A DNA stretch of 47,619 bases from positions 1-47,619 of the IMG/VR virus record IMGVR_UViG_2541047828_000005, one strand, 5' to 3'. Each line of letters starts with the position of its first letter. Positions within the stretch are counted from its first letter, which is position 1. Origin of the DNA: a virus (taxonomy: Duplodnaviria > Heunggongvirae > Uroviricota > Caudoviricetes). Positions 26,164-27,777 of the stretch are shown here, piece after piece. The position numbers and the translations under genes are program-made. The notes under the pieces were generated by a model. That model ran no database searches. It had not been told where the DNA came from and was given only the letters and a program-made list of their open reading frames with translations.

Positions 26164-27777
26164 GTGGCTATTTTTGGCAGCGGGATAATGTTCCGTCAGG
26201 GGAAGTTCGTCTTCCTGATCCAGCGCTCGGATGATGGCACATGGTGCCAGCCGGGCGGGACGATAGAGCCGGGAGAGTTAGCCATAGACGCCGCACGGCG
26301 CGAGGTGCTGGAGGAAACAGGCTATCAGTACGATGGCCCGCTGACGCCGCACAGCGTACATGGTGACTACCTGACCTACCGCGCCGACGTGCCGGAGCAA
26401 TTCGAAGCGAAGATAAACGACGAATCGCTGGCCGCCGGATGGTTCCATATTGACGATCTGCCAAAGCCGCTTCATCAGCCATTCGCTGAAATGCTGGCGC
26501 AGCAGGCGCTCAACGAAACCGACGTGGCCGCGCTCATCGCTGACGGAACGCTCAGCAGCCCGCAATATTTTTACAACATGTGGATGTTCGCCATCCGGGT
26601 GACCGGAACAGGGGTTACCTGGCGATCTGCAGATCAGGAGATGACGTTCCGTAACCCGGACGACTATCTCACCCCTGAATTTCTCCAGCGGGTAGCTGGC
26701 GTACCGCTTATCTGGCTTCACCCCGAAAAAAGAACACTTGATAGCGACGAGTTCTCAAAGCGCGTTATTGGCACCCTGACAAATGCCTGGGTTGCCGATA
26801 AGGGCGAAGTGTGGGCCGTTGCGCGTGTGTACGACGCCGAAGCTGCTGAAATTATGGCAACAAGGCAATTAAGCACCTCGCCAACTGTGAAGTTCTCAGA
26901 GGTTGCTCAATCAATCATTGTCGACGGTCAGCCTCTACTGGTGGAGCCATCCCCCGAGCTGCTCGACCACGTTGCAATTTGTGAACAGGGCGTGTGGGAC
27001 AAGCTCCTTGCCCCTACCGGTGTTAAATCTGATTCCATTCCTGAAGAGGCTGAAAAGATGGACGAGGAAAAAATCGTAGCGCTGATTAATAAGGCGATCG
27101 ATGCGCGTTTGGCTAAGGCCGACGAAGAGAAGGAAGCGAAAGCCAAGGCTGACGCCGAAGAGGCCGCCAAGAAAGAAAAGGCTGACGCAGAAGACAAAGA
27201 AGCGGAAGAGGCGAAAGCTAAAGCCGACGCGGAAGAGAAAGCCGCGAAGGAAAAAGCTGATGCTGAAGCCAAAGAAAAGGCGGATGCCGAAGAGGCTGAG
27301 AAAATGGCAAAAGAAAAAGCCGACTCTCAAATCCTCCAGGAAATTGCTGAACTTCGCTCCCGCATTCCTACCGAACTGAGCGACGAAGAGCGCAACGAAG
27401 TTGCAGAAGCGCAGGTGAAAGCCGATAGCGTCTTCTCCAGCTTTGGCAAACGCGCCCCGATCCCGCTGTCCGGTGAAAAACCGATGGCGTATCGCCGCCG
27501 TCTGATGATTCAACTGCAGGAGCATTCTCCGGACTACAAAGCCGTCGATCTCTCTGCCATCGCTGATTCTCAACTGCTGAGCACTGCCGAAAAGCATATC
27601 TACGCTGATGCGCAGAAGGCGGCCAGCCTGTCAGTTGGTCCCGGTATGCTGCGCGAGATTAAGCGCGCCGATGCTACCGGTCGCCAGATCAGCACCTTTG
27701 AAGGCGATCCCGCCGTCACCTGGGCGCCGTTCCAGTCTGGCAAGCGTCAGGTCACCAGTTTTAACAACCAGGCTTAA
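26164..27777 (+). CDS. Nudix hydrolase domain fused to putative prohead protease/scaffold-like protein with KAEA-rich coiled coil, 537 aa
   Basis: Perfect Nudix box [24 protein letters not shown] (G-x5-E-x7-REUxEExGU); C-terminal low-complexity coiled coil; start may be GTG 26164 or ATG 26188. Confidence 0.7.

Follow-up and report, generated by a model that had tools for sequence, protein, structure and literature searches.

We analysed a 47,619-nucleotide stretch of a tailed phage (IMG/VR record IMGVR_UViG_2541047828_000005, positions 1 to 47,619), referred to below as the window. The subject is a single gene on the plus strand, 26164..27777, encoding a protein of 537 amino acids (aa) in which a Nudix hydrolase domain is joined to a predicted prohead protease and a predicted scaffold. 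The features of the gene are listed here.

26150..26154, plus strand: Shine-Dalgarno-like AGGAG, 9 nt 5′ of GTG 26164 (sequence)
26164..27777, plus strand: full-length coding sequence for the Nudix - prohead protease - scaffold polyprotein (open reading frame list; 537 aa plus stop)
26164..26499, plus strand: Nudix hydrolase domain, aa 1-112 (Pfam PF00293, AlphaFold2 (AF2) and Foldseek; boundary from Nudix-less homologues)
26257..26325, plus strand: Nudix box, aa 32-54 (regular-expression match)
26500..26988, plus strand: predicted prohead serine protease domain, aa 113-275 (DUF2213/COG3566; gp21/assemblin fold)
26719..26721, plus strand: codon of His-186, candidate catalytic histidine (148/148 representatives; invariant in two alignments)
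26872..26874, plus strand: codon of Ser-237, candidate catalytic serine in an STSP motif (145/148; invariant in the phage alignment, including the distant BcepB1A gp26)
26965..26970, plus strand: codons of Asp-268 and His-269, candidate third triad member in an LLDHVAIC motif (145/148 each; role inferred by analogy)
26989..27057, plus strand: disordered linker from protease to scaffold, aa 276-298 (AF2 predicted local distance difference test score (pLDDT) below 50 over 275-298; length and sequence vary in alignments)
27046..27049, plus strand: internal Shine-Dalgarno-like GAGG, 8 nt 5′ of ATG 27058 (sequence)
27058..27777, plus strand: predicted nested in-frame scaffold gene, Met-299 to Ala-537, 239 aa (conserved ATG column; the BcepB1A gp25 start lies in the same column)
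27064..27360, plus strand: Ala/Lys/Glu/Asp-rich helical, coiled-coil-like scaffold segment, aa 301-399 (AF2 helices 301-338 and 361-399; TolA-like match; tandem repeat)
27361..27774, plus strand: conserved C-terminal scaffold domain, aa 400-537 (AF2; many invariant residues across the family)

The open reading frame (ORF) starts with GTG and cannot be extended upstream, because an in-frame TAA (26158-26160) precedes the GTG at 26164. The Yersinia phage homologue starts in the same AGGAG/GTG context. Gly-7 and Ile-8, which are encoded 5′ of the first ATG (Met-9), are at least 90% conserved in an alignment of the family; the GTG start is therefore credible. Family phrog_6216 (PHROGs v4), annotated as of unknown function, matches the whole 537-aa protein (E = 6.9e-246). 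The genes run in the order TerS, TerL, portal, MuF-like head morphogenesis protein, the 537-aa Nudix-protease protein, a 286-aa protein and major capsid protein, which places the gene in the protease/scaffold position. The initial annotation had described a Nudix domain fused in frame to the gene in this slot, and the single ORF, the presence of both PF00293 and DUF2213 and the gene order all bear this out.

Pfam PF00293 covers aa 9-112 (E = 2.9e-16; 60.1 bits, cut-off 21.1). The domain search proposed in the initial annotation returned a Nudix domain as well as head maturation protease families. Residues 32-54 fit the canonical Gx5Ex7REUxEExGU pattern exactly, confirming the perfect Nudix box noted earlier; as a sequence match this is far beyond chance. 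An AF2 model of the whole protein, built from 85 sequences, gives aa 1-115 an alpha/beta/alpha Nudix fold with pLDDT above 90. Foldseek matched the Nudix part to Ap4A hydrolase (3i7u), MutT (4dyw) and NudC (5iw5), with E about 1e-7 and target template-modelling scores of 0.65-0.69 for these 129-134-aa enzymes. Since the matches are Nudix enzymes of several kinds, they confirm the fold and not the substrate. In the alignment of phage homologues, the Nudix-less proteins of Rac-SA53 and Actinobacillus vB_Apl-pPE4 start at about residue 113 of the window protein, thus the Nudix domain is a detachable N-terminal module of some 112 aa. The initial annotation was right as to its presence, but its length of about 150 residues is too great. 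We note that the Rac-SA53 gene carries the word 'nudix' in its record, yet has no Nudix domain. A PADLOC search gave only a weak, box-level match (PDC-S07, E = 3.2e-5), and a sequence search of the Protein Data Bank (PDB) with the whole protein returned Nudix chains only, with no match to the DUF2213 part. Taken from the sequence and the model, aa 1-112 are predicted to form an intact, active Nudix pyrophosphohydrolase.

The protease sits in the next segment. Pfam DUF2213 (PF09979) is found at aa 159-276 (E = 1.8e-5; 25.2 bits, cut-off 22), and almost every close homologue has it precomputed; aa 160-418 are covered by PHROG 'head maturation protease' families. In the AF2 model a beta-rich domain occupies approximately aa 130-275 with pLDDT of about 85. 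A Foldseek search of the PDB with the full-length model was saturated by Nudix structures, and aa 113-300 were therefore modelled on their own; this separate model has the T4 gp21/assemblin fold. The DUF2213 part is thus, at the level of the modelled fold, a gp21/assemblin-type prohead protease. Assemblin-fold proteases use Ser-His-His/acid triads. The candidate residues of the window protein follow the order His...Ser, with 51 residues from His-186 to Ser-237 and 32 from Ser-237 to His-269, and this order and spacing would be compatible with catalysis by a protease of this fold.

A flexible linker separates the protease from the scaffold, and directly behind it the scaffold appears also to be translated alone, from the in-frame ATG at 27058. 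Met-299 (27058-27060) is an invariant column in seven of seven phage homologues. In six homologues, a set outside which BcepB1A lies, GAGG, GGAG or GGTG is found 7-9 nt 5′ of the aligned ATG, and the peptides encoded there differ. The annotated nested 'scaffold protein' of BcepB1A in GenBank (gp25) starts at 5877, in the column of Met-299, and a methionine stands at the protease/scaffold boundary in nearly every representative inspected. The pattern suggests that a minor full-length chain from the GTG and a major 239-aa scaffold chain are likely products of the gene. The nested start is missing from the initial annotation. In phage lambda C/Nu3 and Mu I/Z, nested in-frame translation yields protease-scaffold as the minor chain and scaffold as the major one, the two having a common C-terminus. 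The window carries a sequence signal matching this nesting; the lambda and Mu proteins belong to different protease families and have no N-terminal effector domain.

The scaffold itself falls into two parts. The Ala/Lys/Glu/Asp-rich coiled coil described in the initial annotation is recovered as long helices at 301-338 and 361-399, modelled by AF2 with low to moderate confidence, and aa 299-419 give a sub-threshold, TolA-like low-complexity match. A 75-bp tandem repeat (27136-27276; 1.9 copies, 78% matches) lies in the DNA for the KADAEE-rich coiled coil and may underlie the 537-, 538-, 540- and 541-aa length variants found among near-identical Klebsiella homologues. The label 'TolA protein' given to the genes of Rac-SA53 and Actinobacillus vB_Apl-pPE4 is misleading and arises from this low-complexity coiled coil. 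Long antisense ORFs under the same region, such as 26935-27597 on the minus strand, were treated as by-products of the low-complexity repeat. The C-terminal domain is modelled better, with pLDDT mostly 85-93 over approximately 410-490, helices at 407-426, 440-454 and 469-489 and a beta hairpin at 497-513. From its position, and by analogy with the C-termini of known scaffolds and proteases, aa 400-537 are presumed to bind or target the capsid. Scans of 20-32 kb for promoters, terminators and Rfam families gave nothing above chance within the gene.

The conservation of both active sites was followed with a HMMER scan of aa 1-295 against 1.84 billion cluster representatives, which gave 3163 matches at E<=1e-3, of which 487 reached E<=1e-30. 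Among the best 150 matches the majority span the whole query, indicating that Nudix and protease are carried together. Residues were counted over 148 representatives of separate 50%-identity clusters. Gly-32, Arg-46, Glu-47, Glu-50 and Glu-51 are present in all 146 representatives that cover the box region; His-186 is present in all 148, and Ser-237, Asp-268 and His-269 in 145 each. The sequences therefore suggest that both the Nudix and the protease active sites are under selection. The strict box pattern is found in 135 of the 148. We considered whether the other 13 are inactivated pseudo-Nudix lineages and rejected this, as REx2EE is kept wherever the region is covered; the departures are minor, most often loss of the final glycine, and two proteins (P0344 and P0387) simply do not cover the box.

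The same uninterrupted architecture occurs in more than 100 clusters at 50% identity. A large protein collection holds more than 2000 homologues, of which the top 120, from Klebsiella, Raoultella and E. coli, are at least 96% identical and nearly all have both Pfam domains precomputed. Hundreds of Klebsiella genomes carry the gene (protein P0012 alone is on 514 contigs). Of 5426 complete E. coli genomes, 49 have it, in every case on the chromosome and under the name 'NUDIX hydrolase'; it also occurs in isolated phages from four genera. The idea that adjacent Nudix and protease/scaffold genes were joined by a sequencing or assembly error found nothing in its favour and is refuted by this spread over clusters, Klebsiella genomes, complete E. 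coli genomes and phages of four genera; we regard it as having practically no chance of being correct.

The nearest phage relatives share the architecture and the neighbouring genes: gp4 of Klebsiella phage vB_Kpn_Chronis, a 'putative NUDIX hydrolase' (99.6% aa identity), gp7 of RothC/RothD of the proposed Felixviridae (99.4%), the Yersinia vB_YenM_* homologues (83.5%) and gp04 of Pantoea PdC23 (74.6%). These orthologues differ from the window in nothing of kind. They are labelled 'putative NUDIX hydrolase', 'hypothetical protein', 'virion structural protein' or 'glycosyl transferase', and in the Chronis, Roth, PdC23 and Yersinia records the protease and the nested scaffold are unannotated. 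The 'glycosyl transferase' label, found in five Yersinia vB_YenM phages, is wrong. Misannotated orthologues lie at L005 4001-5632, L002 5007-6299 and L008 4007-5329. The PCR primers of the KlebPhaCol preprint, published there to mark the whole proposed family Felixviridae (target 'gp7, putative virion structural protein'), match the window exactly at 26188-26208 and 27755-27775 and would give a 1588-bp amplicon. As both primers lie inside 26164..27777, the Felixviridae marker gene is the Nudix-protease-scaffold gene. The forward primer begins at the codon-9 ATG, which suggests that the start of the RothC gene is annotated 8 codons short.

A more distant relative, gp26 of BcepB1A ('head maturation protease, COG3566') with its nested gp25, has the same layout of Nudix, DUF2213/COG3566 protease and scaffold. 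The gene order of portal, MuF-like protein, protease/scaffold, small virion protein and capsid is shared too. The two proteins are about 28% identical overall; gp26 belongs to phrog 3778 and not 6216, although its Nudix cross-matches phrog_6216, and it has an extra leader of about 45 aa before the Nudix. BcepB1A is a virulent Burkholderia phage, whereas the window phage is temperate and enterobacterial. In Bcep781, Bcep1, Bcep43 and BcepNY3 a Nudix 36-41% identical to that of the window is found at the C-terminus of the portal. The carrier in phages of the Bcep781 type is thus the portal C-terminus and not the protease N-terminus, and their protease is encoded by a separate, Nudix-less gene. 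The portal Nudix matches phrog_6216 (1.2e-24) better than it does the families of free-standing phage Nudix proteins, and the Nudix of BcepB1A gp26 matches the portal-Nudix family phrog_15528 (1.9e-23). These cross-matches place one Nudix subtype on at least two different capsid-interior proteins. We also observed that the Bcep1 portal (L003 3273-5369) matches the N-terminus of phrog_30637 (profile 2-266 of 1119 positions, function unannotated) and that the BcepB1A protease (L004 4821-6557) matches the C-terminal part of this profile (739-1024), implying that portal-...-protease mega-fusions exist in some phages.

The initial annotation had regarded the fusion as undescribed. This does not hold. 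Iyer, Burroughs, Anantharaman and Aravind described enzymes fused to MuF, portal or capsid-processing serine peptidase (PMC5512222, 2017; PMC9503650, 2022), and the fusion of Nudix to capsid peptidase is in the later paper (PMC9503650, section 3.5.2). The window gene, a Nudix on a capsid-processing serine peptidase in a terminase-portal late cluster, is exactly of this class. The BcepB1A gp26/gp25 layout has been in GenBank for years, phrog_6216 is a full-length family and Pfam lists NUDIX+DUF2213; this architecture, taken from Pfam, was also listed in a 2022 transposon-insertion sequencing (Tn-seq) paper (PMC8770471). Both the arrangement and the inference of a packaged enzyme are therefore already published, and the arrangement is known and common in databases. 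The papers of Iyer et al. give the concept and examples without experimental test (PMC5512222, PMC9503650). They place such Nudix domains in a 'T4 NudE-like' clade (PMC9503650), membership of which is weakly supported for the window Nudix by its sequence. What our comparison adds for the window lineage is the modelled gp21/assemblin fold and, by sequence, an apparently conserved nested start, near-invariant active sites over some 150 divergent clusters and probable swapping of N-terminal cassettes.

The same Tn-seq paper bears on a DUF2213 gene in a prophage of B. cenocepacia K56-2 (BCAM1066). There were no insertions in the 5′ (DUF2213) half of the gene and 425 in the 3′ half; CRISPR interference gave a growth defect and DUF2213 was termed an 'essential domain' (PMC8770471). 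Essentiality would be surprising in the head protease of a prophage; the nested scaffold start, polar effects or toxicity may have played a part.

Cassette swapping was seen among Burkholderia and Paraburkholderia prophage relatives, which were found with the 40%-identical homologue of the record Shewanella phage vB_Sb_QDWS. In these the segment between a leader of about 40 aa and the protease varies as follows.

Nudix before the protease: P0121, P0122
Nothing before the protease: P0142, P0143
PBECR1 RNase (PF18809) before the protease: P0151
PBECR1 and Nudix before the protease: P0133, P0335
ADP-ribosyltransferase (ART, PF03496) and Nudix before the protease: P0132, P0312, P0314
LPD3 (PF18798) and Nudix before the protease: P0154
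DUF5710 and Nudix before the protease: P0247

We rejected the possibility that the Nudix-less Burkholderia proteins are truncated gene calls for P0142 and P0143, which retain the leader; P0139 does look truncated. The N-terminus of the protease thus has the appearance of a swappable cargo slot in these relatives. Domains of the ART, PBECR1 and LPD3 types are those of predicted injected 'polyvalent' effectors (PMC5512222). The leader (MPTVSEKQHRAMEAAAHGHSTLGIP...; phrog_2423 in BcepB1A) is conserved ahead of the slot in proteins of the Burkholderia lineage, for example at L004 4821-4960, at L007 3857-3990 and at the N-termini of P0121, P0142 and P0151. It is kept even where there is no cargo and is missing from the window protein; it may be a targeting or processing signal. 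One long protein, P0317 (1567 aa), has ribonucleotide-reductase-like segments upstream of the Nudix-protease unit and may be a merged gene call. As for the record used as query, 'Shewanella phage vB_Sb_QDWS' (L007, OK094664.1) and 'Hujiaoplasma phage zrk29-1' (OP650936.1) are both 47,902 bp with identical tblastn statistics. The protein they encode has 100% identity to an entry labelled Klebsiella pneumoniae and 86-92% to numerous proteins of Burkholderia prophages. Both host assignments look doubtful, and the genome may be that of a Burkholderia-type phage.

The swappable slot bears on two other accounts of the fusion. In one the Nudix serves assembly or regulation, as a pro-domain restraining the protease, a spacer or a size determinant, and its catalysis is irrelevant to the host. 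The Nudix is directly N-terminal to the protease domain, and regulation of proteases as zymogens is common. Catalytic residues kept in every covering representative would, however, be unexpected for a purely structural part, and functional homologues either lack the Nudix or carry unrelated enzymes instead. We consider this account very improbable. In the other the enzyme works only in the producer cell, late in the cytoplasm, removing ADP-ribose, NAD-derived or damaged nucleotides; the fusion would couple it to late expression, and the domain would be degraded or lost as the head matures, without delivery to a new host. In favour of this account, T4 NudE.1 occurs free and in abundance in the cytoplasm, phage Nudix proteins mostly stand alone (PMC9503650), and virion data for the fused forms were not found in the literature. 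Coupling of expression nevertheless leaves unexplained the repeated fusion to capsid-interior proteins (protease N-terminus, portal C-terminus and, in PMC9503650, MuF), as well as the use of the same slot by ART and PBECR1, effector domains characteristic of proteins that are injected. A low-abundance, GTG-initiated protease chain would also be a poor source of bulk cytoplasmic enzyme. A role confined to the producer cell is in our view rather unlikely.

The best-supported inference from these comparisons is that targeting brings the Nudix into the procapsid, from which it may be delivered along with the DNA. It is favoured because the catalytic residues are near-invariant, the same Nudix is found on portals and the cargo is swapped with ART and PBECR1 domains. 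We therefore propose that the gene encodes a polyprotein of head assembly with a second function in loading cargo, and that its Nudix is packaged, released and ejected and acts early in the host on compounds of the type nucleoside diphosphate linked to X (NDP-X); taken as a whole we think this proposal probable, if modestly so. The full-length chain from GTG 26164 would comprise the Nudix (1-112), the protease (113-275), the flexible linker and the scaffold (299-537). The scaffold part would also be made alone, and in larger amounts, from ATG 27058, as in lambda C/Nu3 and BcepB1A gp26/gp25. Through the common scaffold C-terminus both chains would co-assemble with the major capsid protein, bringing a minority of full-length chains inside the procapsid; this incorporation we hold to be quite likely. 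The protease would degrade the scaffold and probably cut itself free. The compact Nudix domain would then be retained in the head until it enters the next host along with the ejected DNA, a step for and against which we see the case as evenly balanced. At the very start of infection it would hydrolyse an NDP-X compound. We see NAD+/ADP-ribose-derived molecules or dinucleoside polyphosphates (ApnA) of host stress or immune signalling as the likeliest targets, an assignment that is tentative. The same conclusion on packaging and delivery was drawn by Iyer et al. (PMC9503650, section 3.5.2).

T4 offers a partial parallel. Its cargo has a short cleavable targeting sequence on separate proteins and is not fused to the protease. 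The likeness of T4 Alt and IPI-III to the proposed Nudix cargo lies in loading into the prohead core, processing by a protease of the gp21 fold and injection with the DNA (PMC9503650); T4 gp21 has its fold in common with the protease domain of the window.

Several observations weigh against the proposal. In the literature searched, we found no protease-fused Nudix that had been studied by proteomics of virions, by N-terminal sequencing, in an activity assay or through a mutant. No cleavage site was identified between the Nudix and protease domains. The existence of cargo-less homologues means that the Nudix is dispensable for head assembly, and this carries no information on delivery. As to substrate, the structural neighbours found by Foldseek are mixed (Ap4A hydrolases, MutT, NudC, NUDX1, Dcp2) and point to no single compound. 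No NCBIfam equivalog matched at its cut-off; the best, of NudB type, reached 28.2 bits against 103, and all the matches are confined to the box region. The resemblance to T4 NudE is limited to the Nudix box (BLASTP, 34 aa, 53% identity). T4 NudE falls in phrog_1185 (6.5e-74), whereas the window Nudix gives 7.7e-8 with phrog_1185, in a match restricted to aa 21-57, and 5.6e-17 with phrog_1198.

T4 nudE (phrog 1185) is a separate gene adjoining e in the T4 record, and we know of no virion association for T4 NudE.1. It is the best-characterised phage Nudix: in vitro it hydrolyses ADP-ribose, Ap3A, FAD, NAD and NAD-RNA caps, and in the E64,65Q mutant lysis is delayed (bioRxiv 10.1101/2024.04.04.588121). 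Its efficient decapping of NAD-RNA in vitro, which it prefers to free NAD, makes RNA decapping a serious alternative. A delivered Nudix would in this case act, like NudC or RppH, on RNA 5′ ends (NAD caps, Np4A caps or 5′-triphosphates), destabilising host transcripts or remodelling RNA early. NudC (5iw5, 5iw4) and Dcp2 (4kg3, 6am0) are among the Foldseek neighbours (E about 1e-7 to 1e-6), the weak NCBIfam matches include the RNA pyrophosphohydrolases RppH and YtkD, and in relatives Nudix and PBECR1 RNase domains share one polypeptide. The RppH, NudC and YtkD scores, on the other hand, are all far under their cut-offs and confined to the Nudix box, and matches to Ap4A hydrolase and MutT score equally well or better. 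The Nudix is moreover a minimal one of 112 aa, with no accessory RNA-binding region or NudC zinc-binding region. We judge action on RNA ends to be unlikely, though it deserves attention.

The remaining features concern the neighbours of the gene and the window at large.

25330..26151, plus strand: MuF/SPP1 gp7-like head morphogenesis gene, upstream (phrog_324 'head morphogenesis', E = 5.9e-30, profile 81-347 of 624)
28667..29698, plus strand: major capsid protein (phrog_6671, E = 2e-182; phrog_264 'major head protein', 7.3e-7; sub-threshold Pfam Major_capside; the PdC23 counterpart is so annotated)

In other phages, effectors packaged in the head are most often carried by MuF (PMC5512222). The MuF-like protein of the window is short (273 aa) and has no C-terminal effector; the cargo of this lineage is on the protease rather than on MuF. 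The major capsid protein is the expected scaffold partner and protease substrate. Between the scaffold and the major capsid gene lies the gene of the 286-aa protein (27793-28653, plus strand; phrog_6268, function unannotated). Residues 164-242 of this protein resemble segments of large virion structural and tail-fibre proteins; the PdC23 counterpart is labelled 'endosialidase', and the BcepB1A gene in the same position 'virion structural protein'. The 286-aa protein probably serves as a decoration or accessory protein of the head. The window as a whole is a mosaic prophage, in which 1331-21022 and 21831-47619 differ in affinity. The left arm (integrase, cI, O/P replication, lysis) is approximately 94-99% identical to HK106, HK97 and HK022, lambdoid phages of E. 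coli. The structural module (21831-47619) is Chronis/Felixviridae-like, of a type described from Klebsiella, and a terminator-like hairpin (21024-21043, plus strand) marks the boundary.

Hundreds of genomes label the gene only 'NUDIX hydrolase', and some 'glycosyl transferase' or 'TolA', masking the protease and scaffold of a widespread family of gut prophages. Since the concept is already in the literature, its value here lies in experimental testing and not in discovery. As a model for enzymes delivered from the head, so far unused, the system is a good and tractable one, with a single-domain cargo, culturable temperate phages (vB_Kpn_Chronis, RothC/D and E. coli and Klebsiella prophages) and natural relatives that are cargo-less or cargo-swapped. 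A broader proposal, which we advance with some doubt, is that the N-terminus of the protease-scaffold is a general self-releasing device for loading cargo, in which any domain placed there is taken into the procapsid through the scaffold C-terminus, freed by the adjoining protease, retained and injected, and that the Nudix here destroys NAD+/ADP-ribose-derived or ApnA host signals ahead of all phage gene expression. The general idea has been published as a prediction; its demonstration would be new. If this proposal is correct, the Nudix would be a pre-made counter-defence enzyme, and temperate enterobacterial phages would offer a natural platform for the engineering of protein delivery. If packaging and ejection take place, the gene would provide a simple case of a phage importing a ready-made nucleotide-hydrolysing enzyme, and defences based on NAD+/ADP-ribose or alarmones could be blunted within the first seconds of infection.

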